DNA from: Takakia lepidozioides
Taxonomy: Eukaryota; Plantae; Bryophyta
Length of the DNA stretch: 64,000 nucleotides
Reading direction: 5' to 3'
Assembly: GCA_030704615.1 (NCBI GenBank)
Contig: CM060731.1
Span: 72,974,001-73,038,000 of the forward strand
Position numbers and translations under genes: made by a program. The notes beneath the pieces were generated by a model that saw nothing but the letters and a program-made list of their open reading frames with translations, was not told the origin of the DNA and made no database searches. Shown one piece after another: positions 19,757 through 63,619 of the stretch (its first letter is position 1; each line of letters opens with the position of its first letter).

Positions 19757-19758
19757 CT

Positions 19759-19770
19759 TGGTATCAGAGC
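19759..19770 (+). promoter_or_regulatory. Primer binding site for initiator tRNA-Met
   Basis: TGGTATCAGAGC, 2 nt after the 5' LTR; canonical plant tRNAiMet PBS. Confidence 0.9.
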
Positions 19771-19811
19771 TTAGAGTTCAGTACGCGATCGTCCTTGGGA
19801 TTGGCCTCATC

Positions 19812-21170
19812 ATGGGGTCGGGCAAGCCAAAGCGAAAGCGGAACGGCCCAAAAGATGATGATCTTGGTGAGCCCGATGGGGGCGACGTGTCACCGAGGCG
19901 GCCGTTTGAGGAAGCGATGCATGTTTTCGAAAACGAGGCCGCTCAAGAGCGGGAGGAATCCGAGGAGTCGAAGCCCGAGGAATCCTTGAGAGCTCCGACA
20001 AACCAAGAGATGTCTCCCATGCCGGCAGCCTTTTGGGAAGAGTTGTTGGCGCAGTTTGGCGGGACGTTGAAAGACGTGTTGAAGGCGGCTAATGCCACTT
20101 CCACTAAGGCAAAGTTTAAGGTGAAGCCTAAGGAACCCGGCACCTTCGAGGGCGTCCACAATCGGAAGGCACTCAACACCTGGCTCCTGGAGCTAGAGCA
20201 GTACTTCCGGGCGGCCAAGTTGAGTGACGAGGATCGGGTAGAAGTGGCTCCCACCTATTTGAGGGGCTATGCTCAACAATGGTGGCAGAAACGCCTTCAC
20301 GACCGAGGTCCAAGTCCGGAAACCTTGAACTGGAGTGGGTTCAAGGAATTGATGAAGAGACAGTTTGTGCCCATCAATGCGTCCTGGCTTGCCCGGGACA
20401 AGATGAGGAATTTGAAGCAAACAGATGACATTCGGGGATATGTCCAGGCTTTCAATGTGCTGTTGCTCGAAGTTGCGGATATGGCGGAACCAGAAATGGT
20501 CTTCAACTTTGTGGCGGGGTTGGCCCCATGGGCCAGGCGGAAGTTGGAGGAGAAGCCACCTAAGACTTTGAACGAGGCAATTGAGAGGGCTGAATGTTTC
20601 TCAGATGTCCCTAGGGGTGAAAGACAAGGCCGTACGGAGCTGAACCACAAGAAGACCCGGCGGGAAGGTGACTCCTTCCAACCGGAAAAGAAGTGGGATA
20701 GGCCACGCGGCAACAACAGCATGTGGAAATCGAAGGGAGGGCCATCACAAGTCAAGGCGGCACCCGGTGCTTCGAAAGAAAAAGCGGGTGGAGCGGCCTA
20801 TGGCGGACATAAGGCAACCTTTGATGGAGTGTGTTTCAATTGTGGGGAGCCCGGGCACATGGCCAAGAAGTGCACGAAGCCCCGACAATTGAACATGACT
20901 CGGGCGACCACAAAACTGTCGGAAGATACCATCAGTCGCTTGGTGGAAGCGGTGGTCGCCAGGACTTGCAAGGTAGGCAAATATTCTTGTGAGTTGTATC
21001 AGGAAACTGGCACATTGCGTAAAGGGAGTCACTTATTGTTCGTGGATGGGATAATATCCGGAACTAACGTGTCATTGTTGGTGGACACAGGAGCGTCGCA
21101 CTCCTTCATGACACCGGCAACGGCACAAAAGCTGGGACTCCCGACAACTGACGTAGGGGCCTCTATTTGA
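19812..21170 (+). pseudogene. Retrotransposon Gag plus truncated aspartic protease
   Basis: Capsid-like region, CCHC knuckle CFNCGEPGHMAKKC, protease motif LLVDTGASHSF; the frame ends shortly after it. Confidence 0.9.
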
Positions 21171-21244
21171 GGTGCGTTCTGCCAAAGGAGAACCGCAATT
21201 GGCGACGAGGTTGGCGTTCGATGTTCCTCTTCAACTGGGGAGTG

Positions 21245-23704
21245 TTGGCAGGAGCGAAGTATTTCAGCTGGATCGATCTGCGCTCCGGCTATCATCAAAT
21301 TTGAGTGGCGGAAGGAGATGAGGAGAAGACCGTGTGCAGGACAAGGTATGGTTCATATGAGTTCTTGGTGATGCCTTTTGGGCTCACCAATGCACCAGCG
21401 ACATTTAGCACGCTGATGAACAGCCTTTTCCAGGAGTGGTTGGATGACTTTGTGATCGTGTACATCGACGACATCTTGGTGTATTCGAAAACAAAGGAGC
21501 AGCACCTGGAGCACCTCAAAAGGGTGTTCCAGAAATTGCGGGAAGGGAAGCTGTATGCTAAAGCTTCAAAGTGCGAATTCGGGGTCACAAAAGTGGAGTT
21601 CCTGGGGCATGTGATTACACAGGATGGGATCAAAATGGATGACAGAAAGGTGAAGGCGAACTTGGACTGGGAGCCTCCGACTTTGGTCCCGGGAGTGCGA
21701 TCCTTCCTTGGACTCGCCTCCTATTACCGGAAGTATGTGAGAAATTTCGCCAAGATCGCGGGGCCGTTGTCAGACCTTCTGTGTAAATCTAAAGTCTGGG
21801 CATGGAACACCTTTTGTGGCCAAGCTTTTGCTGAATTGAAGCAGCGGATGGCGGAAGCTCCAGTCTTGAAAATCCCGGAGTTCGATCGTCCGTTCGATAT
21901 ACATACAGATGCGTCGGACTTCGCGATTGGGGGTGTACTGATGCAAGATGGACGTCCAGTGGCTTACGAAAGTAAGAAACTAAATGAAGTGGAGCGACGG
22001 TGGCCGACGCACGAGAAAGAGATGAAGGCAGTGGTGCACTGTCTTGAGCTTTGGCGCCACTATGTTGGTTCCAACCCAGTGAAGGTGTTCACGGATAATG
22101 TCACGGTGAAGTATTTTACCACGCAGCCCAAGTTGTCCCCAAAACAACTTAGATGGCAAGATACTTTGGCGGTGTTCGACGTGGATATCCAGTACAAACC
22201 GGGGTGAGACAACGTGGTGGCCGATGCTTTAAGTAGAAAGCAGCAGCTCTTGTTGGTGTACAAGAGCGAGACAACACTCCAAAGGAAGATCCGGAAGGCT
22301 TGTCGGAAGGATGAGCTGACGAAGTCCGTGATGCAGGACTTGAGGATGGGGGTTAAATCGCAATTCCACTTGCAAAAGCGTCTCTACGTGCCGAAGGGAG
22401 GGATCAGAGATAGCCTCTTGAGAGAATGCCATGATAGCCCGCTTGCGGGCCACGTCGGAGCCAAGCGCACTGCGGCACTCCTGAAGAAAGAGTATTTCTG
22501 GCCCAAACTGAGGGAGGAGGCAGAGGAGTATGTCAAGACATGCACCACATGCCAACAAAACCGGAGCGAGTACAAAAAGTAAGCGGGGCTGTTACAACCT
22601 TTGCTGATTCCAGAGGGGACTTGGGAAAGCGTCTCGATGGATTTCATGACTGTTATGCCGCTGTCAAAAGGATTCGATGCAATCATGGTGGTGGTGGATA
22701 GGTTCAGTAAAATGGGCCATTTCATCCCCACCAAGGAGACGGCAACGGCGGAGGAGACATGACGACTTTACTTCGCCCACGTCTTAAAGCATCATGGAGT
22801 CCCGAAGGATATTGTCTCAGACCGCGATCCAAAGTTTACGAGTAAATTTTGGAAGGCACTTTGGAAGAAGATGGGGACGAGGCTGAAGATGAGCACCGCC
22901 TTCCGACCTACGACCGACGGCCAAACAGAAAGAGTGAATTCCGTAGTGAAGCAAATCTTGCGGAATTACGTGTCGGCAGACCAAACAGACTGGGTGGAAC
23001 ACTTAGACGCGACAGAGTTCTGTTATAATAACACAGAACACTCCGCAACGGGAGTTTCCCCTTTCGTATTGGTCTATGGAAAAGCACCTCTGGTGCTGAC
23101 AAGTTGGGCCACCCAGGACGTTGAGGAACTGGCAGTAGCGGCAGTACTAGAAGAACGCGAGCGTTTGTTGAAGCTCGCAAAGTACAATATTGCCAAAGCT
23201 AGGAAACGGTATGAAAGGCAGGCGAATCGGAAGCGGATGGAAGTGAAGTTTGAGGCAGGCACAGAGGTCTGGTTGAACATCAAGAATTTCCGACTACCTC
23301 CGGAAGTCAGTCCGAAGTTCGTACCTCCGTATGCGGGACCCTTTCGCATTCGGAAGGTCATGAATGAGGATGTGTATGAATTGGAGCTGCCGGCAAACAG
23401 CAAGGTGCACCCAGTATTCCATGTCTCCCTTTTGAAGCCTTACTTCAAAGATAAAGCGCGTCCGAATCGGCATCAAGTGTTGCGTCCGCCACCTATGCTG
23501 TTGGATCATGAAAATGAACCTGAGTACGAGGTGGAGGCAATATTTAAGTCGAGGAGGTTCAAGAACCGAGAAACGGAGTATCTCGTCAAATGGAAGGGCT
23601 ATCATCAGGTGGAGGCATCTTGGGTGCGTGCCTCAGAAATGAGAAACGCATCCGAGGCGGTTGCAGTTTTCGAAGGGCGACCTCAAAAGCGGAAGAAGCG
23701 TTGA
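21245..23704 (+). pseudogene. Retrotransposon Pol (RT, RNase H, integrase, chromodomain) with stops and an N-terminal deletion
   Basis: MPFGLTNAPATF, YIDD, TDASDFAIG, HDSPLAGH...CTTC, integrase core, chromodomain EYEVEAIF...EYLVKWKGY. In-frame stops near 21302, 22205, 22580 and 22760. Confidence 0.93.
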
Positions 23705-24608
23705 TGGGGACATCAACCTTGGAGCGTGGGGGAGGAAATGCATGCTTAGCCCGGCTTAGCTAGCTTAGGAATCCGATTGCAAAAACTTGTATTGTACAAA
23801 ACATGCTATAAATGAAATGACTTCCAAATGTTGTGCGTCCTATTTTGTTTGGAATGGTGATGCATGGTATGGTTGGCTAGTGTGTAGAATGCATGCTAGC
23901 TTATAAAAGTGGGAGAGGTAAATTGGGTTAACCGTGTGTTTGCGTAGTGCCGAAATCGGGTGACCCCCATCCAAGGGGCAATGAAACTTGTGCCTTCTTT
24001 GGGAGTTCACGTGCTAGTGCGCACCTGGCGCGTGCGCGTACTATAACTGCGCTACCGAGAGGGTTGCCTTGTAGTGCGGGCTAACGCGGAAGCTACGTGC
24101 TTCCGTTCACGTACTATAATCGTGTAGCCTCGGGACGAAGTCGTAGTGCGGCTTCGGCGTGTTCCCGTACCTCGGCCAACATTCCAAGGCGGACCCAATT
24201 GTAGTGATTGGGGCGCACGGTTGGTTCAAGGTTATCTTCCTAGTCAAAGAGGGTTCCAGGTGAACCCTTGCTCAAAGTGATGCCAAAAGCGGCATCATGA
24301 GCGGTCGCAAGCAATGTTGTTGCAGTAAGGCGATTCGATCCTCGGGGAGGATCGTTCCTTGGCCTTGAAGTAGGCCAAGAAGAGTGCACTGGGAGGAGCT
24401 TGAGAGGCTCCACCCTTGGCCGGGACTTGGAGGAAGTCGGCCGAACTAACTAGTGGAGAATAGAGTCAAGTGTGGGGTTTGGTTCTTTGCCATGGGACGC
24501 CATGGTACGGAAACAAACTCCTTGATGTGGGACGCCACAACTTGGATGTTCGTTTCTACAAAATGGACAACTCGATGAGGACATCGACTCCCTATTAGTA
24601 GGGGTGTG

Positions 24609-25338
24609 TGTCGCGGCCCTTTGCCTTGAGGGCAGGGGGGGTCGGGACACGTGAGGGGCTGCCCCTGTGGTGGGGGCAGCGGCAGCGATAGGATGGGGGG
24701 GGCTGAAGCACCCTTGAGTGCCCAAGGCACTCAAGGAGGCGGAGGCGCTCACTACGTGGAGCCCCGCACACCGGGTTGCGGTGGGGGTGGCTCCACAAGG
24801 GGTGGTGGTAGCTTAGCGGGACTTAGTGGGGGTGACATAGGACTCACCATGGGGGCGGAGACCTCGTGGTGGGAGTCGTGGGGAGTCTTGGGACTCATCA
24901 CGGTCCATAGGGGCCGTGATGAGTGGGCCAAGATTCACCGCGACTCATCACCGGGAGTCGAGGGTTTTCGTGGTGGTTCGCCATAAAATGGCATGGCTGG
25001 TTGTGAAACCCCCGCGGACAGCTACAGAAGTATATATAGGGAGTAGTAACCCCGAGAACGGTGCAAGCCCGTTGGTGACCAAAAACTAGTGAGTGAGCGA
25101 GCGAGCCGGAAAGCGACCAAAGAGTGGGGAGCTGTTCCGGACTGCCATCTACCAAAAGGGAATTCCACTAGGCCCAAATAGATGGAGGGTTTAGTGGGGG
25201 AGCGAAGGGGGTCCGTTACGTCCCGGTGAGCAGCCGAAGCTCCAAGTTGGCCCGGCGGCCAGGTTGGGAGTCAGGCGCGCGCATCAAAACGAGTAACTAT
25301 GACTTGAAGGGGAGTTTACCGAAGTGAGGTGCGCGACA
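24609..25338 (+). repeat. 3' LTR
   Basis: Direct repeat of 19027-19756, preceded by purine-rich TAGTAGGGG. Confidence 0.96.
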
Positions 25339-29620: not shown

Positions 29621-29894
29621 TTAAGTGAAGCTCATTACTGTCAACAACTTTGAAGGTGTCCACCTTTCAGCTGGAAGGCAGCAGCCCTTGTGGTGAAGAG
29701 ACACCATAAATTATGCTCCATTCGGAAGGCGTCTAAATTTTTTTTCAAAAACTTCGTCTAGACGCATATGGCTCCTCTACGCGAATAGTAAAATCTACTT
29801 TCAAGATTCATCCATAATAAACCTGAAAATTCATCCATTTATTTTTCATAAATTATTCAATAAAAAAGAGGTTATCTGAGGGAGGTATTACCTT

Positions 29895-30585
29895 GAGAAG
29901 CATATTGGGAAGTAGTTTTCAGCAAATGAGAGGAGATGAGAAGCATATTGGGACGTAGTTTTCAGCAAATGAGAGGAGACGAGCAGCATATCATGAAGTA
30001 GTTTTCAGCAAATCAGAGGAGATGCAGAAGCATATCGGGAAGTAGTTGTCAGCAAATGAGAGGAGATGGGAAGCATATGGGGAAGTAGTTCGTCAGCAAA
30101 TGAGAGGAGATGAGAAGCATATCGGGAAGTAGTTGTCAGCAAATGAGAGGAGGTGAGAAGCATATCAGGAAGTAGTTGTCAGCAAATGAGAGGAGATGAG
30201 CAGCATATCATGAAGTAGTTTTCAGCAAATCAGAGGAGATGCGAAGCATATCAGGAAGTAGTTGTCAGCAAATGAGAGGAGGTGAGAAGCATATCAGGAA
30301 GCAGTTTTCAGCAAATGAGAGGAGATGAGCAGCATATCATGAAGTAGTTTTCAGCAAATCAGAGTAGATTTGAAGCATATCAGGAAGTAGTTTTCAGCAA
30401 ATGAGAGGAGGTGAGAAGCATATCAAGAAGAAGTTTTCAGCAAATCAGAGGAGATTCGAAGCATATCAGGAAGTAGTTTTCAGCAAATGAGAGGAGGTGA
30501 GAAGCATATCAAGAAGAAGTTTTCAGCAAATGAGAGGAGATGAGAAGCATATCATGGAAGTAGTTTTCAGCAAATGAGAGGAGGT
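29895..30585 (+). repeat. Minisatellite, 16 copies of an about 43-bp unit
   Basis: Consensus GAGAAGCATATCAGGAAGTAGTTTTCAGCAAATGAGAGGAGAT, head to tail with no spacers. Confidence 0.95.
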
Positions 30586-31128
30586 AAGGCATGGGGAAGG
30601 AGGAGCAGGGGCTTAGTGATTTTTGAGTGATTTTTGACTGATGCGTAGTCTCCTCTAAGTTAGCCAACAATAAACTAGTGGAAGTACTTGAAAAAAGTTT
30701 GGGTATTATATGGTGGAGGTATTTCAGGAGGTTCCAAACTATTGAGGACTCACAGCTAAAATGTGGCTCTCCTCCACCTCCTCAGACACAATAATAGTAT
30801 ATGACGCCTCCGCAAGGAAGCGTAAAAGCTATGGTGTGTCTTGACCCGAAGAGGTGAAGAGAGCTGAGAGGCCTCGTTGGCTCACACATCCAGCAGGGGA
30901 TTCAATCAGTAAGAGGTTCAATCAGTAAGAGGCGCGGGTGGCTTCAATGCGGTGGGCCCGTTGTTTATCCACAAAAGCCCCGAACCATAACTCTACAGTA
31001 GTCCCACGATGTGCATGTCTTCGTCCTTCTGCATATCAGACGAGAATGTGGAAGAAGATAAGAAATAAGGAGATCACGTGGTGTTAACTACTCGACAATC
31101 TGGGGCGCTGCCACTGTTTTTCGTCACA

Positions 31129-46623: not shown

Positions 46624-48925
46624 ATTAAAATGGTAGTTCTAAACTGTGGAGAAACAGTAGGCCTAGTTTGTTTTCAAGTGAGATGTGCTTGGCTGGTCAT
46701 TGTGTCCTCTGGTTCATCGGCATATATATCCATGTGTCTGTGCACACTGCGTACCTTTCCTTCTTTCCCTGCTGTGCTTGCAGTGCCTTGTCTCTCCGCC
46801 ATGTCAATTGATGTCTCATGTAATGCCTTTCCCCTAATTCAAACAGTTATCTCAGTTGGGATGGCGCAGATCAACACGTTGCCTCAATGGGCTTTTCTAG
46901 GATCTATCACTGAATTCAGAGTGTGTAGGACATCAATAAAGCCAAGAGTGTATCCATCTTCTTGTGGTTGGAGGAATGGCTACTGCCAAATGGTGCTCCA
47001 AAATGGGCCACTCACCAATCTGCAAAGTGTGTAACACGGGCTGAAGAGTTTCTCCAGGCTCATTGCCTTTGGAGTTGCAATGAAACTGCTTGCTCATAAT
47101 CTCATTGCCCCTTTGTGGTATGAATCTTGGGATGAAGCCCTTCTTGGTGTGACAAGGAATTTTGTTGGTTTTGTCAGAGCAAAAGGAAAGGGAAGCAAGT
47201 GAATCACCATTGAGCACCTCTGAGTGAGAGAGAGTGCCATGGATGCGGAGATCAATGAGGAAAGGAACAATGTACATAAGAATTAAACTTCTAACGTCCC
47301 AAGTGGTCTAATTGTTCGAGACTACCTAATTTGCTTGCTAATTATTCACTGTCTGACAGGAAACAGATTAGGCCTCAGTCATCCATGGAAGGTACACTCG
47401 CATAGGAACAAATATCTACTACACGACGGACCCTTGAAACTGGACTTGCAAATCCCTCCTCCATCGCGCACAACTTCATGAACACTCCATGAACAAACTT
47501 TGATTCCCCCACATGTCTTCCACATGTCTGTATAGGTAACCAAGAGTGATAAAACTCGATGTGATCCATGGAAATTACACACGAATCTCATCATTCAAAA
47601 TTACACAGTTAATCTTTTGCAAGACTTTGCAGCCACCGTACTCTTCGATATTCCAAAATAACCTGGTGAGTCTGGACTGTGAACAAGCATCCATGATTCC
47701 TGTAGAATGTCAAATACCAGCGCTTGTGATTTATCGTAGCGCATCAAAACTACGTGATCACCACACACTTTCGCAAGCCAGTAGGGCGACCACCGCAGCG
47801 TGCCAATTTCACGACCAATTGCAAGGAAATCCTGCAGTAGTTGATCATGAATTTTCGGCAACTGCCTCCATTGTTGAGAGGAGATATCGAACTCCCATAA
47901 ACGTGGGGTACCGCTGGTGTCAATCCCAGCTACCAACAAGCGGCCCCGACTTTCCAACAAACATACAACTCTACGTAAGCCATTGGGGATCTGTGTAACC
48001 TCCTCCCACACTTCAGTCCCTAGTGTGTCATAACGAAAGAATCTGTGGTATCCATCTTGAAGTTCACCTTGAACACCGTGGCGAGCAGCATAGGTCATCC
48101 TGTACATCACGTTGCCGCATTTGACGAGAAATGGAGATCCGGAAACCATCAAAGGTCCAGGAATGTTTCGTGTCTCATTCCACGAGTTGGAGATAGAGTC
48201 GTAGGACAAAGTCCTGATCACTCCATCTCCTTCGACGGTAAGCCCAGAATATGCAATTATAAGCTCGTACCCACCGGTACTGCTATCCACCACCAATTTG
48301 CTTAAAACAGTACAACAGCGGATGCTGCCTCGGTAAATTATAGGCACTTTAGGCAGTCGTCTGCAACACTTCAAGATTGGGAATCCCCGTGACAGGTACA
48401 CCTTGATTCCATGGAAAAGAGACCTCCATCTGCAGAATGTAAAGATAATCGACCATATGATGGCACAGCGCCTTGACAATGAAACAAATGAGGTTTAAGG
48501 AATGAGAGGTCCATCTTGTGCAACACGCCCCTTGACGGATCCCAAAACTCCATCACAATAGTATCTGACCGTATGCTATCAGATGCAGCCAAGCAAAAGA
48601 GGAAGAATGGCTCCAATATTTGATCGAGACCGACTTGGTTGCAAAGATGCATAAACGCCGGAGATGCAGGCAGGGATCGCCATCGCTTGCACACCACCCG
48701 TAAGCGGAAGAGATGTGTACAAGGTAAGCGTGCCAACACCCTGTCCAGTATGTCGAACGGTAGCCTACTCCACACCTCCTTGTCCATCACCATGACCCAC
48801 CGCTGGATCAGCACTATAGAGACAAAGACAAAATGCGCTGGGACATGTGATAAGCCTTGTACGTAGAATGAGACTCTCCCGCCAACCCTCGAAGCAGCGC
48901 ACGGAAGAGTGAGATGACAGAATTT
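46624..48925. repeat. Segmental duplication, copy A (partner about 50612-52985)
   Basis: Both copies begin attaaaatggtagttctaaactgtggagaaacagtag and stay colinear to gaagcagcgcacg...gagtgagatgaca. Confidence 0.92.
47601..48795 (-). pseudogene. F-box protein (F-box plus kelch/FBA-like C-terminus), copy A, frameshifted
   Basis: MDKEVWSRLPFDILDRVLARLP...LRVVCKRWRSL. A deletion near 48385 relative to copy B shifts the frame. Confidence 0.85.
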
Positions 48926-50611: not shown

Positions 50612-52985
50612 ATTAAAATGGTAGTTCTAAACTGTGGAGAAACAGTAGTTTTTTAGTTCAATGTTTTCAAGTGAGATGTGCTTGGGTGGTCATTGTGTCC
50701 TCTGGTTCATCGGCATATAGATCCATGTGTTATACATCCAGGTATGTGCACCCTGCGTACCTTTTCTTGAACGGTGTTTCTTTCCCTGCTGTGCTTGCCT
50801 TGCAGCCTTGTTGTCAATGTCTCATGTAATGCCTTTCCCCTAATTCAAACAGTTACCTCAGTTGGGATGGCTCAGATCAACACGTTGCCTCAATGGGCTT
50901 TTCTAGGATCTATCACTGAAATCAGAGTGGGAAGGACATCAATAAAGCCAAAAATGTATCCATCTTCAAGATTGTGGTTGGAGGAATGGCTACTGCCAAA
51001 TGGTGCTCCAAAATGGGCCACTCACCAATCTGCAAAGTGTGTAACACGGGCTGAAGAGTTTCTCCAGGCTCATTGCCTTGGGAGTTGCAATGAAACTGCT
51101 TGCTCATAATCTCATTGCCCCGTTTGTGGTATGAATCTTGGGATGAAGTCCTTCTTGGTGTGGAAATCCCCCTGACAAGGAAAACTTTGGTTTTGTCTGA
51201 GCGAAAGGAAAGAAAAGTACGTGAATCACCATCGAGCACCTCTGAGTGAGAGAGAGTGCCCTGGATGCGAAGATCAATCAAGGAAAAAAATAGATACATA
51301 CATAAGGATTAGTGCTGTAATCTTCTAACGTCCCAAGTGGTCTAATTGTTCAAGAATACCTAATTTGCTTACTAGTTACACACTGTCTGACAGGAAACAG
51401 ATTAGGCCTCAGTCATCCATGGAGGGTACACTCGCATATGAGCAATATTTATAGTGTCTACTACACGACGGACCCTGGAAATTGGACTTGCAAATCCCTC
51501 CTCCATCGCCCACAACTCAGAGTTTATGAACACTCTATGAACATATTTTGATTCCCCCACATGTCTTCCACATGTCTGTAAAGGTAACCAAGAGTGATAA
51601 AACTCGATGTGATCCATGGAAATGTATGTACACATGATCATCATTCAAAATTACACAGTTATTCTCTTGCAAAACTTTGCAGCCACCGTATTCTTCGATA
51701 TCCCAAAATAACCTGGTGAGTCTGGACTGTGAACAACCATCCATGATTCCTGTAAAATGTCAAATACCAGCGCTTGTGATTTATCGTAGCGCATCAAAAC
51801 TACGTGATCACCACACACTTCCGCATGCCAGTACGTCGACCACCGCAGCGTGCCAATTTCACGATCACTTGCAAAGAAATCCTGCCCTAGTTCATCATGA
51901 ATTTTCGGCAACTGCCTCCATTGTTGAGAGGAGATATCGAACTCCCATAAACGTGGGGCACCGCTGGTGTCAATCCCAGCTACCAACAAGCGGCCCCGAA
52001 TTTCCAACAAACATACAACTCTATATAAGTCATTGGGGATCTCTGTCCCAACCTCCGCCCACACTCCAGTCCCTAGTGTGTCATGACCAAAGAATCTGTG
52101 GTATCCATGTTGAAGTTCACCTTGAACACCATAGCGAGCAACATAGGTCATGCTGTACATCACGTTGCCGCATTTGACGATAAATGGAGATCCGGAAAGC
52201 ACAGCAGGTGCAGGAATGTTTCCTGTCTCATTCCACGAGTTGGAGATAGAGTCGTAGACCAAAGTCCTGGTCACTCCAACTCTTTCGGCGGTAAACCCAA
52301 AAACTAGCTCATACCCACCGGTAGTGCTATCCACCACCAATTTGTTTAAAACAGTACAATAGCGGATGCTGTCTCGGTAAACTCTAGGCACTTTAGGCAG
52401 TCGCCTGCAACACTTCCTGATTGGGTTGAACACGATGAAGTTTGAATCCCCGTGACAGATACACCATGATTCGATGGAAAAGAGACCTCCATCTGCAGAA
52501 TGGAAAGATGATCGACCGTATGGCAAAGAGCCTTGACAATCAAGCAAATGAGGTTTAAGGAATGAGAGGTCCATCTTGTGCAACACGCCCCTTGACGGAT
52601 CCCAAAACTCCATCACTATAGTATCTAACCGTATGCTACCAGATGTAGCCAAGCAAAAGAGGAAGGTTGGCTCCAATATTTGATCGAACCGACTTGTTTG
52701 CAAAGATGCATAAACCCCGGAGATGCAGGCAAGGATCGCCATCGCTTGCACACCACCAGTAAGCGGAAGAGATATGTACAAGGTAAGCGTGCCAACACCC
52801 TGTCCAGTATGTCAGACGGTAGCCTACTCCACACCTCCTTGTCCATCACTATGACCCACCAGTGGATCAGCACACTAGAGACAAAGACAAAGACAAAGAC
52901 ACATCCGCTGGGACATGTGATATAAGCCTTGTACATAGAATGAGACTCTCCTGGGAAGCAGCGCACGCGAGAGTGAGATGACAAC
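50612..52985. repeat. Segmental duplication, copy B
   Basis: Colinear with about 46624-48925. Confidence 0.92.
51651..52852 (-). pseudogene. F-box protein, copy B, frameshifted
   Basis: MDKEVWSRLPSDILDRVLARLP... A 1-bp deletion near 52687 (gtcggttcgat versus gtcggtctcgat in copy A) separates the F-box from the downstream ORF. Confidence 0.85.
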
Positions 52986-53524
52986 TGCACGTCTGCTTCA
53001 CCCGAGCCTCTTCTTTTATACTACGCAGCTCGGCTCATCAAAATAGACTGCTTTTATATATACACTACAACTCAATTTAGTGTGTCTAAAAGCATCTCCT
53101 CACATAAACATACAGTGTTTGCTGGGTCCTGTTCAAGCAGGCCAACGTTAACTCAAGCAGCCACTCCATTTTTGGTTAGACAGAAGCCACTGGTGGGAAT
53201 GGGAACTCATGTGCAGGGAAAGGAAGATATTTACTCAAAACAACAGGAACCCCAGTGAGGGGAGGAAGAAAACAAGGGGGCAGCAAGGAAAATGCCACTC
53301 TAACCCACCAAGCCCCAAATCCCATGTGCAAAAGAGATTGTGAGAGACCCAACAAACTGGTGTCGTTCGCCTTTGTTGGTGGCCGTCGTCTTTTCAGTTT
53401 CCCCCACCGATGGGTGGGCCAAGCTGAACTATTGTGCCCAGGGAGGTTGAGCCTCCAAACTAACTGCTGGCAGCATGGCTCACCAAATGAGAGTATCATT
53501 GTGCCAGCACTTGATTAGAGACCC

Positions 53525-54410
53525 TCCTCTTTGGGAGATCTAGACCTAGGGTAGCCTACGCCATTGGCCCATGTGTTAAGAATTGAATAAGTCCAAGTGC
53601 AATCCCCTATGTATTCAAGTAGCGTCTCCTATGTCAATGTGTGAAGAATTGAAATCGAAGCCCAAGTGCAATTTCTTATGTATCCAAGTGGGTCTCCTAT
53701 GTCGAGGCCCATGTGCGACCTCTAGTGTAGCTTATGCCGTTGGCCCATGTGTGAAGAATTGAAAATCTAAGCCCAAGTGCAATCTTCTATTCATGTATTC
53801 AAGTGCATCTCCCATGTAGAGGCCCAAGTGTCCAGTGTCATGTAACTTGCCAAGTGCAATCTCCTATGTATCCAAGTGCGTCTCCCATGTTTTCCATTAA
53901 TTTATTAAGTAGTAATATATCCATTCATTATTGATATATCTCCCCAGGCTCCAAGGAAAGTCCACTTTGCTATTTTTCGGGAATTTTCGTTGGCCCAAGT
54001 GTCTAGTGTCATCTAAGTCCAAGTGTAAGATCTTCTATGTATCCGAGTGAGTCGCCTATGTTGAGGCCCAAGTGCGACCTCTAGGGTAACATGTGCCTTT
54101 GGCCCATGTATGAAGAGTTGAAATCTAAGACCAAGTGCAATTTCCTATGTATCCCAATGCGTCTCCTATGTCGAGGCCCAAGTGCGACCTCTAGTGTAGC
54201 CTATGCCGTTGGCCCATGTGTAAAGAATTGAAATCTAAGTCCACGTGCAATTTCCTGCGTATCCAAGTGCATCTCCTATGTCGAGGCATCGAGGCCCAAG
54301 TGCAATATTCTATTTATGTATCCAAGGGCATCTCCCATGTAGAGGCCCAAGTGTCCAATGTAATGTAACTTGCCCAAGTGCAATCTCCTATGTATCCAAG
54401 TACGTCTAAT
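53525..54410 (+). repeat. Degenerate array of CCAAGTGCAAT / GGCCCAAGTG modules
   Basis: Many imperfect repeats such as gaagaattgaaatctaagcccaagtgcaatttcctatgtatccaagtg; an inverted partial copy lies at 15660-15872. Confidence 0.8.
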
Positions 54411-54411
54411 C

Positions 54412-54512
54412 ATTTTTTTTTTTCCACAGAGCCTATGACCAGATTTGAACCGGAGACCTTTCCCTTGATATCTCTCCACTCGAGGCTCCAACCATTGTCC
54501 CAGGAATGCCCA
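54412..54512 (-). mobile_element. tRNA-derived SINE-like sequence
   Basis: Minus strand shows A-box-like TGGGACAATGG, B-box-like GGTTCAAATC and a terminal A-run. No clear TSD. Confidence 0.45.
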
Positions 54513-55236: not shown

Positions 55237-55339
55237 TGTTATGGCTAATAATAATATATCTTCCGGTCCTGGGCGGGCTCTCTTGCTCTGGCAAAACATA
55301 AGAAAAAGGTGAGAGTGAGGGGCATGACTCAACATAACA
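55237..55339 (-). repeat. Candidate short 3' LTR (103 bp)
   Basis: Inverted termini TGTTATG...CATAACA at the boundary with the AT-rich flank. No partner copy in the window. Confidence 0.4.
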
Positions 55340-55719
55340 CACCAATCCGAGCCTTGGCACGGTCTAAGGTCCTTTGTCGTGCGCATATATATCGCTACAC
55401 AACTACATCGCTGTCCAAACCACACCACACATATATGCACAATAAAGTAGTCTGCCACAATCGCCCCCCTAGCTGGTGGGTAGGTCCCTCTACCTCCAAA
55501 TAGCTACAAGATGTAATAGCCACAGCCGTACTAAGTCCTCTATCACTGTCCCTGTTGTACTCAAACTCTGTAAACCAAGAGGCCGGGTACAAGAGTAGCC
55601 CCATCGTTAGTCGCCGTCTTGCAATCTGTGAACTTGAGCCAGGATCTCGTGTGTTCAAGGTCTCCTAGTAGCTTGGCGTTGCATTTCTTGTCAGCCTCCC
55701 ATGGTTGTATCCACTCCCA

Positions 55720-56905
55720 CTATCCAATGCAATGCGGACATAACCAATCCCCAGCAGGAACCATCTCAAGAGGTGGAGTCAAGCATCCCATATGCCAACC
55801 TCTAGAGCATCGATCACACACCAGCATGGTGGCTGCCCCTCTAGCAGACCCACACAACATGCATTTCAAACTTGCAGATACCACTACCAGGTTTGGATCA
55901 ATCCTGCCATCGACATTCGGAAGGTGACATGGCGCACAATTACGCACATGGTCCTTCCAAGTTATGCCATCCTGACCCTCCAAGACCAAGACGCCTGAGG
56001 GCAAAACCTCTCGAACCCTCAAAATAACACGTCATGCAGTCACATCCAATGTCGTAGGAGCAGTCTGCTGCAGATAGACATAGTCACCAGGGTTGAATCT
56101 CCGAACCCCAGGACGATAGCCCCCACCACGTATGGTAGCATACCTCAACGTATCACGGTGTTGTGCAATGGCAAGGTTCTCGAAAGCCATGGGCATGACT
56201 CTCTTGAACAACTCTGCACGCTGCTCACATGCACGTGCCCACACGTCCGGATCGTCAAGGTTAAGAACTGTAGCAGCTTCTCTGCGAATGGATGTAGGCA
56301 AATCCGGCTCTCGGCCAAAGAGAAGAAAGTATGGTGAGAAGGAGGCAAGTGATGCTTGCTTGCTGAACCTGTAGCCCATGGCTAACCAGGATAACTGAAG
56401 GTCCCAATCTCCTAGGTGTCCCTTCTGCAAGCCATACTTGCGCAAACCCATCTTTACTGTCTGAACAACTCTCTCTGCCAAGCCATCGGCCTCAAGATGA
56501 TCCCGAGAAGTGGTGCGGTGGTCTATCAAGGCTTTGTCACACAAAGCCTGAAACTCCCCCAAGAACTCTCTCCCTTGGTCCGTGAGTACCTCAGCTGGAG
56601 CACCGAATCGGCTAAGCACACAATCCAAGAATGCATACGCAGCTCCCTCACTAGCCTTATCAGGCAATGGAACCAATTCAATCCACTTGGAGAAGTGTTC
56701 CACCATCACCAACACGTACTTGTTGTGGCGCATGGTCAGTGGCAACGGCCCTTCGAAGTCAAGACTCCACCTGTAGCCCAATCCCATGATCCGAAGAGGG
56801 TGCAATTGTGGAGTAGGGGCGTTGAATGAAGCACGCACCCTGTCACACACCATGCACCTAGCCACAAATTGTTGCACCTTTGTGTGCATACCACGCCACC
56901 AATAC
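55720..56905 (-). pseudogene. Integrase with C-terminal PHD finger
   Basis: YWWRGM...CMVC; DDE residues in SLDFEGP, TDQGREF, AERVVQT; FNPGDYVYL; then CMLC...LVCDRC...WHMGCL...WLCPHC (Cys4-His-Cys3). One stop at about 56032. Confidence 0.92.
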
Positions 56906-57330
56906 ATCCAGATCATAAATCCAACGTGCTAAAGACCTTGGCATGCCCAATGGCATCAAAGATCTCCTCTGGTGTTGGCATGGCATACCTATCGGACTTG
57001 GTCTAACAATTTACAGGCCGGTAATCACCGCACATACGTCTCTCCGTCCATTTGCCAAAGACATCCTTCTTGGCTGGCATCACTGTGGCTGAAGCATACT
57101 CTCCCCCAGATAGCTCCACCAAACCAGCCTCCCAAAGGTCCTGAGTTCTCATCTGAATCAAGGACCTCTCCATGTCACTGTATCTATAGGGTCTCCGAAA
57201 GATTGGCGTGTCAGTAGCCAATTCAATGCGAATCTCTTGACCCTTCAGTGCTCCTAAGTCCTTTCAAACTAAGCTGAAGGCAAAGCAGTTCCTGTAAGCC
57301 CTCAAGAACCGCCGTATACGTCGTCTCTCT
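56906..57330 (-). pseudogene. Reverse transcriptase N-terminal fragment
   Basis: PIFRRPYRYS...YASATVMPAKKD...RRMCGDYRPVN...DRYAMPTPEEIFDAIGHAKVFSTLDL. YxDD core and RNase H are deleted. Confidence 0.88.
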
Positions 57331-57719
57331 CCTCCGGTGACTATAGGTCCAACATCAGGCTCCCAGTTGTCCTCCGTGACTGCAACCTTGAGTCCAGCAG
57401 ACTTAGAGGTAGAAGACGCGTCCCGTGGATGCTATGCTGCAACCTCTTGAGCAGTGACCAATGCCTGCTCTGTCAGTGACAATGTCTCATCCTGCCCCAT
57501 CATCCCATCCTTGAGGACCTCCTCAATCCGAGAAAAATCCCCAACCTGATCCATCACCGCCGCCTTGGCTGCCAACTCCTTCTGAACCTCGAGCACCTCC
57601 CACGTGTGCCATGGATGCGGCCTGCACCTCGTGCTCCTCACATGCTCGCCCCCACTCGCTGCCTATACCATCTCGGTAGGCAGGGAGACCATGAAGGGAA
57701 GTGTACTCCGTACTCTGCT

Positions 57720-58690
57720 CAGCCATAGCCAAGCTGATAATCCAGGTCAAGCAATTGAGATCCATTGCTTGCCCCAACACCTGACGACGTGATGCCTCAG
57801 AAAGAGATGGCACCGCCGTGGTACCTGTGGTAAAACCCATCGCCCGCTCGCGCTCATCAGCATTGGGCTCCACTAATTGTTGCAACTGGCTATCCCACAA
57901 GAGGCCAGGTCCACCATCCTGAAAAGCATGGGATCCTGGGAAGCTGAGCAGTGTAGGTAATGCTGCTCGTGGTTGACCCACCCTGTTGACCACTGCCAAA
58001 GGCAAACGGTCATCACGTCTCACACGTTGAGACTGCCTCCCTGTGTCCAAAATGCTATCCACTGTGAGGTGTGCTGGCCGTTGCACCCTATCAAATGCAC
58101 GCTTGAGCAGTGCGGGTGGCATCAAGTTAGTCCACCATAGCCATGGACGATGAGCCCATGATCCCACTGCAGCTGCATCCAGCAACACTGCTGACCCAAG
58201 CCACGACCGGACTTGATGCACATTGGCCATCACCCTGGCCCGAGAATCACCCATCAGTGGCACATTCTCCAAGATGTATGCTTGAGATACAGTTTGATGA
58301 AGCTGCAAGTGGCGCAAAATCCGCACCATCTCCCAAAACAGACCCGTCCTCGAGTCTCGCAATCCATTGCCATGCCCGGCTGATGAATGCCCTTGGCAGG
58401 GCCAACTTGCACTACCAGATCAATGGAGCCAACCTGCTCCAAATCCTGCGCCCCCAGCAAAGAAATGTCTGCTGGCAAGGCTTGTTGGTATCCACGAACT
58501 GCAGACACTGACAACAAATCAGGGTACTGCTGTACCAACTGAGCAATATGGCGCAGTGAGACGTGTCGTGCAGTCTCATCCCTCTCCACATATAGGTAAC
58601 GTTGAACTCGTATACCTGCCTGCAATACTACAGCCAATCCAGTGCTGATCCCGCCAAACAAGTCCAGAAGGCATATGCCTTCATCCGGGC
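57720..58690 (-). pseudogene. DNA (cytosine-5) methyltransferase domain, Dnmt3-like, within the retrotransposon polyprotein
   Basis: Motif I ICLLDLFGGISTGL; motif II RYLYVERD; motif IV DLV(V)ASWPCQG (1-bp frameshift near 58410); VI YILENVP; VIII AHRPWLWWTNL; IX ERERAMGF; X RRQVLGQAM. Confidence 0.9.
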
Positions 58691-61631
58691 ACTGCCACAC
58701 AAGAGGTGTGGTGTCCAATGACGACAACTGAGGTGGTCCTGGTGCAATCACCGCACTCTCCTCTTCTCTTGACGGTACGAAGGCCTCTACCCAGGCTTGT
58801 TGTACCTGTCCATCAACAGCCTGCTGCAAATCCTTGCTCGTACCCCATAATGGAGTGTGAGCAACCATGGTAGGCAACTCCGCCGTACCATGCATGTCAT
58901 TCTGCTCTACTGGAGGTGGCACATCCTCTGCATGGGCATTGCCTTCCAGCAACTCTCCAGGCCAACTAACTGCAGCTGTAAAGACGGCTAGTATTGGCAT
59001 CTTGCCCCACTGGGCAGCCGCAATACCCCCAATGAATGTCACAGGGAGCTGTGCACGACGACCATCTCCTGACTGCCATCCAGGGCTGTAGGATGCTGAC
59101 ACCTTCCAAAAGTCCAGGGTGAAGCCCATGGGATATAACACTGCCCCACCAACAAGGACATCGTAAGAGATCGCGTCTGTCACAATGGCCTTGGCTCGCA
59201 TCACTGAGCCATCTACAGGATGATCTGGTTGTAGTCCAATGGCCAACTCACGCCGTGTCATGCCCCGAGCCTGCTCTGATCCTCCCAGAGATGTTTGTAT
59301 CTAGAAAAGACGAGGCTCCATATCCGCCTCCATGAGGCCCAAACCTGCAATAGCAGCTCTGCCCAACATCAGTGGCTGAGCTCCTGAGTCCAACAAGACC
59401 CGCAGTGGCCGGTACTTCTTGCCTGCCGGTCCACTCAAAGTTAAAATGCCTCCCTGGTTGTCTAACAAGACAACTCGAGGTGTCACCATGGCGCGCTCAA
59501 AGGCTGGCCTAGCTGGCAGCTCCGTCAACCTAGCAGCTGCAGCTTGCCATGGTGTAGCCGTGGCAGTCTTGACCCTCAAATCTGAGGATCCCTCTGCCAC
59601 TACACCTTCAAGTAACTCCGCAAAAGATGAAGTGACCTCCCCACTCTCGCAGAGTGTTGCTGCTAGTTTGAACACTGCAGCTGGTCTTACCCCCGGCGTC
59701 GCAATAATGGTTGTCGAGAACAGTGGGGCTTGACACACAGAGGTGGCTGCCCCCAATAACACACCGGCTGCACTAGCCTTGGTAGCAGGTGTCAGTGCTG
59801 CACGTGTAGCTCTCCCCAATGGCATAGTAACCTCCGCCTCGGTAACAGTCGGGCGAGAACTAGGTGCCATGGATGGCGTCGACACTGTCTCCGCCAATGT
59901 GAATGACTGAGGAAGCCTCGCCTGACGGCTTGCCTCCCCACATTGTGGATCCAACTCCACCTCTGCACCTCGTGGCTCACAAACTCGTGCTGCTCCTCGA
60001 GTCACGGCTGCAGCAGCCTCCACCTGCTCTAGTGGTAGTGCTGCTCCGCATATAAATCCCATGTCTCCCATATCTCCTCCCTTAGGAGCAGGAGGTGGAC
60101 CATCCCGCCTGGAAGCCGGTACCGCCTGAGCTGTAGTCATGGCAGCGAGCCTCTGCTCTAGCTGCTGAAGCCGGTTGGCCATGCCTTGGTCAACACCCTG
60201 ACCTCCGCGTCCTTGGCCATGTTGAGCTTGCCCTTGGCCTACACCTCGTGCCCGACCACCTCGTCCTCTCTGGGCTGGTCCACCTCACCCCCGGCCACCA
60301 TTGTTCCCTTGGAACTGGCCTGGGCGCAACTCAGGATGCAAGTCATAACACTGGGCATCTCCATGCCCATACTTGCATCAATGCCCACACTGCAACTGTG
60401 CAGGCTGTGTTTGTGCCGGCCTTTTGCCACTCTCTGGGCAATCTCTCTTGACATGGGGTCCTCCTCATGTCCAACATATCATCTCTGGTTGCTGTTGGCT
60501 TGCAAAAGATGCCACGGGCCTCTGCACCTGAGGTCTCCTGTAAGCTCCATGGAACTTGGGTTGGGAAACCTTGCCCCCCTGACCACGCTGTTGGGCAGTC
60601 CTTTGTGCATGTGGGCTGGCAGCTACGCCTCGTGCAGGCATGTCCTTGCCAAACCCAATGGTAACAACTCGCTCCTCCACCATGTTGAGCTCAATCCACT
60701 CAGCCAGAAGAAACACATCTGCTAATGTGGGTTGGGCTGCTTGTAACAGGGTTGCATCCCGCACCCTTCTCCTGAGCTCCTTGTCCAAAATTCCATACCA
60801 GAACTGGATTGTCTGAGCTTCAGTAACCCCTTGGGTCACACTTATCAAGCACCTCATACGAGTGTAGGCCTCTCGCAAGCTCTCACTAGGTTTGCGCTGG
60901 AAGTCTTGCAAACTTCACAGCTTCTCTGTCCGTACACCTTGGTAGTTCCTCCGCAACTCCTGGAAGAACTCCACCACCGGGTTGAATCTAGGCACATGTG
61001 TTGTAGTCGTGGCAGGAGGAGTAGTAGCACTTTTTGAACTGGTACCACCTGCAGAAGTACCGGCACTACTTGTTCCACTACTAGTGCTGGTAGTGGGAGA
61101 TATTGGTACTGATGCAGCTACTGGTCGCGTCGTGCCTCGAGTAATGGAGACGTAGTCAGGTAACCAATACATCCTCCACTCCTCAATCTCTGCTTCATGT
61201 CCTCACCTGAACTCGTGGTAATCGTCCATAAGCGGGCCATCCAAATGCTGGAACAGTCCCTTCCACGCCATGAATGGGGTGAATAGCTGTGGATTGCGCA
61301 TCTGCTGCAAATCACACCAAGTGTCGAACTCCTGGATAAAGTCATCCAACTCGATTGTGCCCACAGCTCCAGAGTACCTACGAGGCCCCTTGGTAGCTCC
61401 ATACATCTCCTCCATGTCGTCCCACAACAATGGCGAATGAAACTGCACACCTGTTGATGAAGCCTCTGAGTCTGTGTCTGACTCTACAGTAGTTGAGGGT
61501 GGCGGTGAAGGTGGTCTGAACCGAATACCTCGTCTTGTGAACCCACTCTCACTGTTACTGCCTGTAGCCGTACTCCCCTCAAAACCCTTGGGTAACTCCG
61601 TAATGACACTCACAATGTGCACCTCCTCCAC
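58691..61631 (-). pseudogene. Retrotransposon Gag and aspartic protease (one frame, interrupted by stops)
   Basis: Five consecutive ORF-track segments share one frame; FQRKPSESLREAYTR gag-like motif, CWT*GGPHVKRDC knuckle, VLLDSGAQ and YDVLVG protease motifs. Confidence 0.82.
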
Positions 61632-62149
61632 GTGACACTATAAGGCTCTAGTACTAATCTAATAGTGACACGGGTAGGCACCTGTTGCAGTCTAAGGGTC
61701 ATATCCCAATGGCTCAGGGCACCTGCACCTGCATCCACCGCAAGAACTCCTATGGTTGGCTGGTCATCAACCTAGCCTCACCATAGAAGAAACACCGGTG
61801 GTCTTGCTGGTCATCACTCCAGCCTCACCACCGACAGCATACTCTAGGATTGACCGGTGATCAAATCCGGCCTAATCCCTATAAAAGCAAGCGCCCACAC
61901 AAAACCAACATGGCGCACAGCCAAGCATGCAGGTGTTGGGGGGGATCCAAACGCAAGAAATCAAAACATCAACACCCCCACACCAAAATCCATCTGCAGT
62001 GCTGACCTGCAGAATATCCCAGCCCAAAACCCCGGACTGATTGGCCTCCACCAAGAGAGGCTTTGGCAACTACAAGTACAAGGTAATGAAACTAGTACAG
62101 AGATGGAAGGGAAGAATAGAAGCCCGACCAAGCAAGATCTAATCCTGAT

Positions 62150-62797
62150 CTATGCTATCAACTGCCAGACTTCTCTCAAAGTGCCTCGCTCTGCATGATG
62201 GTAAGGTGTAGGAGGTATATCTATGTCCAGAAACCTGCCACTAACCTTGTCCCAAACTACAGTAGCTCGCTCTAACCAACCCTCCTCCTCTTTCTGCCAG
62301 GTATAGACAAAGCAATACTCCCCTATCTCCCGCTCACTGAACACTAAAGAAAACAAAGGTAGGGTCTGATAGTCTCTCAACTCAAAAGCTTTGAGACGGT
62401 TGCGGGTGTCCTCATTGCGAATGACTGCATCTCCTTCACGCACAACAAACATGTCATTGCTAATGAACCCCCGTTCGTGGTTGCCCTATGCAGAGCATAT
62501 CCGGCTGCAACCATGTCTGATTGCACAAACTTGTGTAGCTCCTGCTCCTCTGCTCCAGTACACCACGGCCTTGTGGCTGAACACCTTGGTCCCCGGGGCT
62601 GTCTTTGGCTGTGTTCCAAGCCTAGCTTTCACCCACTTTGGTATTTCACCTACAACTGCAGAACTGCTGGCTCCAACAGAGTTCTGACTGTCCAAGGCGA
62701 TATTGAGGCCCTCAATGCCAACTACAGCAGTCTGTTGTCTACTGCTAATGCCTGACTCCCAGTATGCAATCAACTCGTCCAATTGTTCTCCACTCAA
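62150..62797 (-). other. Unknown ORF of about 215 codons upstream of gag, with one in-frame stop
   Basis: ORFs 62486-62797 and 62150-62452 are in the same frame, separated by one TAG. Protein-like composition but no recognised motif. The start codon is non-ATG. Confidence 0.4.
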
Positions 62798-63128
62798 ATT
62801 AGATCTAGATAGATAGATTTCCCCTTTTTGCAGCTATCCCTCCAAAAACTGAGTCAAACAGAGTCCATCTGACAAAGTTATGACCAATTAGGCTCTAAAT
62901 CATTTAAATTAGATCGAAAGGTTATTTATTTATTTATTTATTTTTATTTTTAACACCGAAACGTTCTCGCCATTACAAACCGTTCCCAGGTTTCATTTGT
63001 AGTTACAGGTGCACCACCACAGGCTTGTCGCTCTAGCTCGCAGGTCTTGCACAGATCTTTGCACACAGCGCCCGTCTCTGAAGCTTCGCCTATAGTTTGT
63101 GCAGATTTTGATACGGTTTGCTTCAATA

Positions 63129-63619
63129 ATGGCTGCCTGTGCTGCATCTTCCTGGTGGCCACTGGCATTCCCACTCTGTCCAGAAGCAAGAAGGTTGCAA
63201 GAGTGGCCTCCGTCCAGGCCAGCTTCCCCAGCCTGCGATCTGGCAACCGACTGCATTCCCTGGCAATGAGCAACCGGTCGTTTTCGAGCCAAACTAGAAT
63301 CGCCAAGTCCTCGGCGAAGACCACATGCAATGCAAAGGTTGTGATCTCCTTGAGCACCGGAGCTCTTCTGTTTCTGGGACGATTTGTGTTCCTCCCCTTC
63401 CAGAGAGACAATGTTGCAAGGCAAGGACTCCCTGTACAAAATGGCGTTACTCACTTTGAGGCCGGTGATAGCCGGGCACAGGAGGTCGTTGGCTTTTTGA
63501 AGACGAATGACCCCGCTGGTTTCACCCTCGTCGATGTGCTTGCTTGGGGAGCTCTGGGTCATGCCATTGGTTTCACCATCCTGGCCATTGCAACCAATGA
63601 TTATGAGCCTACCTTTTAG
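63129..63619 (+). pseudogene. psaG: Photosystem I subunit G copy, frameshifted in the transit peptide
   Basis: [46 protein letters not shown]...[19 protein letters not shown]. The ATG at 63129 (MAACAASS) is out of frame with the main ORF. Confidence 0.85.

Follow-up and report, generated by a model that had tools for sequence, protein, structure and literature searches.

Retrotransposons that carry a Dnmt3-like DNA methyltransferase (MTase) are a kind already known from algae, where they were described in 2018 (PMC5890265, here and below as far as its text and supplements were covered). The closest described system is KnitGypsy-Dnmt3 of Klebsormidium nitens (de Mendoza et al. 2018, PMC5890265), which has a gypsy-type polyprotein, an intronless and non-rearranged Dnmt3-like domain, purifying selection and DIRS-like split repeats, all of them traits shared by the element reported here. 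Its authors place the DNMT in one ORF with the reverse transcriptase (RT) and group the K. nitens enzymes with Dnmt3; they obtained no methylation in yeast, a result they call inconclusive, and the methylome of K. nitens shows nothing out of the ordinary. The covered text does not mention a PHD finger, a palindromic joint or a 4-bp duplication. SymbioDIRS-Dnmt3 of Symbiodinium also has a Dnmt3-like domain in its polyprotein and split repeats, and its enzyme gave CG methylation in yeast, its authors proposing methylation of the cDNA (PMC5890265); it has a tyrosine recombinase, whereas the family described below has a DDE integrase. EpiLTRs of Cymbomonas and Euglena likewise combine a cytosine MTase with a chromatin reader in an LTR retroelement, but their DNMT is sister to DNMT4, is accompanied by DAM and a chromodomain, and is called distinct from streptophyte Gypsy-DNMT3 by the authors (covered text of bioRxiv 10.64898/2026.05.21.726589). 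Chlamydomonas Gypsy-7a_cRei and other PHD-bearing elements share a gypsy polyprotein with a PHD finger, but no MTase is among the Gypsy-7a_cRei domains in the legend (bioRxiv 10.1101/2022.06.16.496473, in part). Among host enzymes, PpDNMT3b, a DNMT3 of non-flowering plants, is alike by description in its non-permuted DNMT3-type catalytic domain, but it is a cellular gene product with de novo CG and CHH activity (Yaari et al. 2019, PMC6453930, in part).

The element described here lies in a 64,000-nt stretch of the Takakia lepidozioides genome (contig CM060731.1; hereafter the window). Its parts, in window coordinates, are as follows.

55375..62910, minus strand: decayed retrotransposon copy with an internal deletion and no recognisable 5′ end; the left edge is exact, the right one approximate
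55375..55459, minus strand: terminal repeat B (TG..CA), a single B that ends the copy (blastn against the B repeats of L061; sequence)
55461..55474, minus strand: polypurine tract adjoining B (read from the sequence)
55729..55869, minus strand: PHD finger at the integrase C-terminus (PF00628, 2.8e-11)
56035..56910, minus strand: DDE integrase, core and part of the H2C2 finger (PF00665, 1.4e-13; PF17921, 9.8e-5)
56905..56906, no strand: deletion joint, where the remaining RT, the RNase H and the integrase start are gone (from a related contig)
56916..57140, minus strand: RT, N-terminal part (local RT profile, 3e-26; 63% identity to ORF2 of L048)
57426..57434, minus strand: in-frame TAG (57432-57434) and its 3′ hexamer, here CAT CCA; conserved, predicted readthrough site
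57721..58410, minus strand: MTase C-terminal piece, motifs IV, VI, VIII, IX and X (PF00145, 1.6e-9; 73% identity to P0087)
57766-57777, minus strand: LGQA (sequence)
57832-57849, minus strand: ERAMGF (sequence)
58141-58155, minus strand: AHRPW, motif VIII (sequence)
58261-58275, minus strand: ILENV, motif VI (sequence)
58393-58404, minus strand: WPCQ, motif IV with the catalytic Cys (sequence)
58411..58709, minus strand: MTase N-terminal piece, motifs I-III, in the gag/protease frame (local profile, tblastn, sequence)
58584-58592, minus strand: YVE (sequence)
58650-58661, minus strand: LFGG (sequence)
59031..59423, minus strand: aspartic protease, LDSG at 59382-59393 (local profile, 1e-39)
60290..61616, minus strand: Gag and zinc-knuckle region, interrupted by stops (tblastn to P0087)
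61617..62910, minus strand: 5′ leader, multi-copy, without repeat A (run depth)

Contigs from public runs stack over 55375 to ~62910 and fall to background outside. In run X3 their depth, which is no copy number, is 2,600-17,600 over 55250-62905 against 12 over 62906-63150, and this contrast between element and flank shows that the element belongs to a multi-copy family. Moreover, X3 contig depth is alike in the MTase and gag bins, and the MTase is therefore a normal part of the family. The left edge is marked by 11 X3 contigs with loose ends at 55375 (agreement 0.93), while other copies in runs X1 and X3 extend past B into a further repeat through a B-GC-A joint. The same polypurine tract precedes B in the relative loci L061, L066, L033, L058, L048, L059 and L081. 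At the other end, no start of repeat A was found in the window and no LTR pair in the copy, nor does the right-hand depth drop coincide with a 5′ end flanked by the fitting target duplication. Some run copies depart from the window sequence at 62799, within the leader. Two stop-free stretches of the leader (62150-62833, minus strand; 111 and 115 codons) resemble a decayed ORF and have no match in Pfam, PHROGs, the 80 loci or the collected relative proteins.

The 5′ edge adjoins a host PsaG (photosystem I subunit V) gene (62954-63619, plus strand; PF01241, 6e-19), whose best PDB matches, 8htu, 9lut and 6l35, rank above 7wfd and 5l8r; 8htu and 6l35 are moss structures, 7wfd and 5l8r flowering-plant ones, a ranking that fits a bryophyte-like host. 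All three runs covering 63153 have one base more than the window there, probably an assembly error. Elsewhere the window contains a tandem duplication of an F-box/Kelch gene (46800-48830 and 50800-53020, minus strand; ~4 kb spacing, pieces 84-99% identical), a ~110-bp repeat family deep in the runs and present in opposite orientations at 53540-54420 and 15580-17900, and a 43-bp tandem array at 29833-30651.

A closer inspection of the coding region bears out most of a sequence-only reading made beforehand. That reading had described a non-permuted set of C5-MTase motifs between protease and RT, and all of them were found as stated, on the minus strand and running from I to X in canonical order. 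It had further claimed that the MTase begins in the gag-protease frame; against P0087, a single-frame tblastn segment indeed takes in gag, protease and the MTase's first third (61616-58374). The local gag profile matches at 60690-60995 (1.6e-29), and the protease of relatives matches PF13650/PF13975. Its claim of a dead copy, with a frameshift near 58410 and stops, was confirmed and extended: six stops fall inside the gag-protease-MTase segment, a second frameshift follows directly after motif X (~57715), and part of the pol region is deleted. A 5,009-nt related contig (runs X9 and X10) has 1,430 extra letters between 56905 and 56906, and because these 1,430 bp are missing the window copy jumps from the first ~75 residues of RT into integrase. 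The second Arg of motif VIII is Trp in this copy, while other copies in the runs are without the 58410 frameshift. The integrase that remains is 71% identical to ORF2 of L048, and the best PDB matches of its PHD finger are CHD4, PHF12, KDM5B/5A, ATXR5 and PHF21A. With stops, two frameshifts and 1,430 bp of RT, RNase H and integrase gone, the window copy is dead.

The absence of a DNA_methylase match, which the same reading had named as grounds against itself, was not observed: the C-terminal piece matches PF00145 at 1.6e-9, over the curated cut-off, while the N-terminal piece by itself has no Pfam match. The intact natural MTase domain of relative L005 gave a predicted fold of pLDDT 94, and the top rows of a Foldseek search with this model consisted of DNMT3 entries alone (1.6e-20). 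A wide structure search placed DNMT3B (Z 29.4) and DNMT3A (28.3) ahead of M.MpeI (25.5), HhaI (22.4) and DNMT2 (21-22), whilst DRM2 matched over residues 1-140 only (Z 9.7). Against solved structures the profile also put DNMT3A first (3.3e-22), every other family scoring 2e-7 or weaker (tobacco-type DRM 4onj 1.9e-7; HhaI 2e-6; DNMT2 5e-5). Thus the domain had rightly been likened to Dnmt3 and not to DRM, DNMT3A/B ranking first in profile and fold searches; a plant DRM is rejected because the motif order is I to X and not circularly permuted. Identity to DNMT3A/B is 20-24%, and on these profile and model comparisons we regard 'DNMT3-like' as a fair label. That the element is a retrotransposon carrying a DNMT3-like MTase is nearly certain.

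Among aligned relative domains the catalytic Cys is kept in 315/318 and the Glu of ENV in 341/352, and the catalytic Cys, ENV and the motif VIII Arg are 93-99% conserved. A dN/dS test of the MTase, proposed with the sequence-only reading, gave about 0.12 between open-frame copies: 0.125 for L048/L049 (dS 0.26), 0.119 for L048/L059 and 0.10-0.13 across open-frame copies, where RT stands at 0.04, a little below the MTase. Ka/Ks below 0.2, a mark of the KnitGypsy-Dnmt3 kind, is thus found here too, and the codon comparisons of open-frame copies show the MTase to be, as judged by these ratios, under purifying selection. In decayed moss-type copies the values are 0.45-0.82 for MTase against 0.25-0.50 for RT; between the window copy and moss-type copies the MTase has dN 0.22-0.26 and a dS near or above 2. 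Pfam scans of the relatives found no reader domain adjoining the MTase. CpG at codon borders is strongly reduced in L005 (0.05-0.12), moderately in L048 (0.32-0.39) and in the window copy, and mildly in L081 and L059 (0.59-0.74). The control, at 0.72-0.92, is younger than the MTase element; it is a second, ordinary Ty3/gypsy element of the window (19022-24903, plus strand; 300-bp LTRs 98% identical, a chromodomain-like C-terminus, no MTase), which also served as outgroup. The CpG loss fits long exposure to CG methylation, self and host methylation being indistinguishable in this signal.

The first protein search found 66 relatives among 3,161 candidates, the top ones from Calypogeia fissa and Marchantia polymorpha at 70-72% identity. 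M. paleacea, Riccia sorocarpa and Sphagnum came in with a profile search (best 120 of 262), with no vascular plant named among the matches listed, and in an HMM search 452 clusters reached E 1e-30. Marchantia and Calypogeia have intact relatives with identities of up to 72%, more distant ones come from Closterium and K. nitens, and at least five annotated Marchantia genes (Mp_4g09160, Mp_Vg00370, Mp_Vg00540, Mp_5g06330 and Mp_5g06860) are open Gag-PR-MTase frames (PR, protease). The domain had been read as belonging to the family rather than as a stray exon, as a land-plant occurrence, and as a relative in kind of the Klebsormidium element. These views stand, since the same domain occurs in named liverwort and moss proteins, in algal proteins and in many loci, and since PR-MTase order and split repeats are shared with Klebsormidium; the second ground named against the reading, that other family members lack the domain and it nearly equals a host DNMT3 gene, did not come true, intact members with the MTase having been found. 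An IMG/VR scan gave 16 pattern matches and 0 relatives. Bacteria were rejected as hosts of P0033 and L081-L083, the contigs being whole retroelements; these eukaryote-type elements (L081, L082, L083, P0033) in bacterial MAGs are probably contamination.

Two layouts were recognised, organism labels being available for 4 of the 10 clusters examined. Layout 1, gag-PR-MTase-RT-RH-IN-PHD (RH, RNase H; IN, integrase), is that of the window element, K. nitens GAQ93235.1 (P0270) and two Closterium proteins. Layout 2, gag-PR-RT-RH-MTase-IN-PHD, for which Scenedesmus is named, is the multi-domain form met most often in a set of 147 new representatives (loci L069 302-4498, L082 4039-8469 and L083 5099-9523; protein P0188). 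It forms one clade in the RT tree (97.9/99), L069 and L083 share the same palindromic joint 3′ of the ORF, and in many layout 2 MTases Glu replaces the Pro before the catalytic Cys (97/317). The MTase trees are unrooted and without host DNMT3, and the IQ-TREE sets hold 13/43 and 14 RH-MTase-type sequences; in them the window copy, Marchantia, the Calypogeia cluster and moss-type copies form one group (0.998; IQ-TREE 90.1/99). A PR-MTase group including K. nitens P0270 has support of 0.64 (IQ-TREE 83.9/29), P0066 being counted in it solely since its MTase precedes RT. In the RT tree, which does not hold K. nitens, the layout 1 group has 87.4/72.

Between MTase and RT lies a conserved stop codon. 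Of 105 relative loci found, 80 were fetched and 62 cover this junction. At 50 of the 62 an in-frame stop followed by CAA or CAG stands at the same place (37 TAG, 13 TAA), the background for CAA/CAG after any TAG/TAA triplet being 3.4%; these 50 junctions are not independent, 45 coming from one moss-type family, whose hexamer is mostly CAA CCC and so without the last A of CAR YYA. The full CAR YYA occurs in 5 of the 50 and also in L081; the nine bases after ORF1 read UAG-CAR-YYA in L005, L048, L049, L059, L064 and L081. The arrangement is absent at 12/62 loci, at 2 of them apparently through decay, and the window copy reads TAG CAT CCA where relatives have CAR YYA or CAA CCC. In L048 and L081 the TAG is the sole break between the Gag-PR-MTase frame and a 1,047-codon RT-RH-IN-PHD frame. 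Among 74 PR-MTase proteins, 62 have no RT after the MTase, some perhaps because of contig ends; five Marchantia proteins terminate 79 residues past the MTase, and in P0270 and two close relatives the protein stops 10-12 residues past it. The other 12 continue into RT without a stop, and hence the stop is not needed by every relative.

UAG-CAR-YYA is the tobamovirus readthrough signal, a Type I leaky stop (PMC3542737, in part); there it splits parts of the replicase, whereas in the window family it would split Gag-PR-MTase from RT. Judging from the conserved sequence context, Pol is probably made by readthrough of the TAG, and in that case the MTase would be produced at Gag level. The MTase had been called part of the polyprotein, which holds for the Gag-PR frame but must be qualified for this clade, in which the conserved stop cuts it off from RT. 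Land-plant hosts and this stop are also what separate the window clade from KnitGypsy-Dnmt3, and since the TAG splits MTase from RT we class the window element as a relative, not a member, of that family; on sequence grounds it appears to be a land-plant relative, which may or may not share its descent with the K. nitens elements (83.9/29).

The ends of the element are unusual. The order A-coding-B-A-B is complete in five loci (L033, L058, L061, L062 and L066), while three others (L012, L027 and L070) are A-coding-B, with a single B on the right and a target duplication; such single-B copies may reflect either loss by B-B recombination or a second replication product. Repeat A starts with TGTCA, B ends with the inverse, and the first B follows a purine tract. 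Insertions are flanked by target duplications of 4 bp; among 8 distinct two-ended insertions, 6 have exact duplications and 2 have one mismatch. The B-A joint is the palindrome ACA-GC-TGT or a decayed form of it, with a GC centre in 5/7 pattern matches and also in L059, L081, L069 and L083, and GT in L048; it is present as well in run contigs of the window's own family. By analogy it looks like two retroviral ends joined, as in a circle junction. L081 has a 127-nt overlap between its ends, which we do not count as a sign of a free circle, as assemblers close such a loop on any A..B-A repeat. A TGG-starting primer site directly after A was seen in 0/6 loci, judged by eye and with no tRNA set compared, and the window contains no tRNA genes. 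In P0067, P0068 and ORF2 of L048/L059 Pfam gives rve and no tyrosine recombinase, and L048 and L081 have no further ORF above 234 codons. Because no recombinase was found, the DDE integrase must use the split-repeat ends, and with rve present and no recombinase the DIRS (tyrosine-recombinase) class is rejected. The assignment to Ty3/gypsy holds for the domain set: RT-RNase H-integrase order is present in intact relatives, the window copy being without RNase H by deletion, and the best PDB match of the relatives' Pol is Ty3 Pol (4e-98). It fails for the structure of a canonical LTR element, given the split repeats and the lack of an LTR pair. We therefore reject a canonical Ty3/gypsy LTR element, as the window copy has no LTR pair and relatives have A on the left and B-A-B or B on the right, even though a polypurine tract (window copy and relatives), TG..CA ends and target duplications (relatives) are in place.

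Taken together, these sequence features suggest that the Gag-PR-MTase is packaged and that the MTase methylates the element's own new cDNA, a reading to which we give a probability of about 0.55. Most ribosomes would halt at the TAG and yield plentiful Gag-PR-MTase, while a minority would read through to make RT and integrase. Protease may then release the MTase within the particle, where reverse transcription would provide unmethylated DNA, and the MTase would mark the new cDNA, most likely at CG. Integrase would process the ends encoded by the B-A joint, and the PHD finger could steer insertion by holding the complex to histone H3 tails that lack methylation at K4. The new copy would arrive pre-methylated, and might so resemble old host DNA or limit its own expression.

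Other uses of the enzyme are conceivable. It could act on host chromatin, at the target site or at other loci, via the integration complex or by release into the nucleus, and so alter silencing. Expression at Gag level would give more enzyme than one cDNA needs, and the integrase PHD is closest to the fingers of CHD4, KDM5 PHD1 and PHF21A, which are readers of unmethylated H3K4 (H3K4me0); animal DNMT3 reads unmethylated H3K4 through its ADD domain. However, MTase and PHD finger lie on opposite sides of the stop and on different predicted cleavage products, and such an action sits poorly with the ordinary K. nitens methylome (PMC5890265, in part), so that we hold it to be rather unlikely. Less probable again is that the element retains the domain for a purpose other than DNA methylation, whether binding or methylating its RNA or giving structure to the particle. 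Its fusion to Gag, the RNA-packaging protein, its faster evolution than RT and integrase, and the inactivity of KnitGypsy-Dnmt3 on DNA in yeast (PMC5890265, in part) would fit such a role, but the 93-99% conservation of the catalytic Cys, ENV and motif VIII Arg would not, and the best matches are DNA enzymes, with DNMT2 far lower (5e-5; Z 21-22). That a piece of a host DNMT3 was captured just once, or lies nested in this copy, has nothing in its favour beyond the window copy being broken, and can be dismissed for practical purposes: named proteins from liverworts, mosses and algae, and 80 loci as well, carry the domain in the identical position, depth is even across the MTase, there are no introns, and the closest relatives are all retroelements.

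The source of the enzyme and the route to Pol each have an alternative as well. A phage or bacterial MTase that is a distant cousin of DNMT3, rather than a captured plant DNMT3, is an improbable source, although the phage family PHROG 116 matches the domain over its full length (4.7e-26), viral members dominate two of the three best ESM Atlas clusters, and identity to DNMT3A/B is as low as given above. Against it, single phage proteins reach 23-31% identity and an E of 1e-12 at best (best 20 of 471 matches), the three GTDB matches are whole retroelements on short MAG contigs, solved structures place DNMT3 first, and de Mendoza et al. put the K. nitens enzymes with Dnmt3 (PMC5890265, in part). 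Equally doubtful is that the TAG is not read through and that RT and integrase come from a message that is spliced or has its own start, or from reinitiation. A Met stands early in ORF2 in some lineages (codon 3 in the moss-type family, 5 in L049, 14 in L059), and the moss-type hexamer is an incomplete CAR YYA; but the stop and both ORFs share one frame in all intact copies seen, the full hexamer occurs across divergent lineages with differing Y bases (L005; L048/L049; L059/L064/L081), and the first Met of ORF2 in L048 and L064 is at codon 117. A search 3′ of the stop found no conserved RNA structure (z from -4.4 to +1.4), and this, together with the Met near the ORF2 start in some lineages, would also suit other expression routes.

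A wider and tentative reading, for which we see less than even chances, may also be considered. The green-lineage clade (bryophytes, Closterium, Klebsormidium, and chlorophytes such as Scenedesmus with the MTase behind RNase H) would be old and have its own mode of replication, with no tRNA primer, an encoded palindromic circle junction that the DDE integrase cuts, a leaky stop through which the DNMT3-like enzyme is packaged in Gag-like amounts, a PHD finger aiming at silent chromatin, and every new copy born methylated.

The literature searched names no land-plant element of this kind; figures, one large supplement, Repbase-type libraries and subscription papers may hold one. Streptophyte Gypsy-DNMT3 is mentioned, with no land plant named, in the covered text of PMC12344493 and bioRxiv 10.64898/2026.05.21.726589. 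The word 'Marchantia' occurs 0 times in the searched supplements of PMC5890265 and PMC12344493, and the covered text of PMC6317226 has neither 'methyltransferase' nor 'Marchantia'. Nor does such an element appear in the covered parts of PMC9516144, PMC10952607, PMC6453930, PMC12885004 and PMC3441728, or of bioRxiv 363937, 2021.11.30.470311 and 2022.06.16.496473.

To the known kind we thus add land-plant hosts, a conserved TAG between MTase and RT, a palindromic B-A joint with 4-bp duplications, and a sister layout that includes Scenedesmus. Plants silence retrotransposons by DNA methylation, and why elements should carry a silencing enzyme has been an open question since 2018, with examples so far in algae that are hard to manipulate. 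The conserved stop bears on the amount of enzyme and on its destination, and the split repeats suggest a reason why LTR-based surveys may miss the lineage. Unnamed MTase genes of retroelements could confound bryophyte methylome studies. Lastly, because Marchantia carries open Gag-PR-MTase frames, the question can now be tested in a genetic model.
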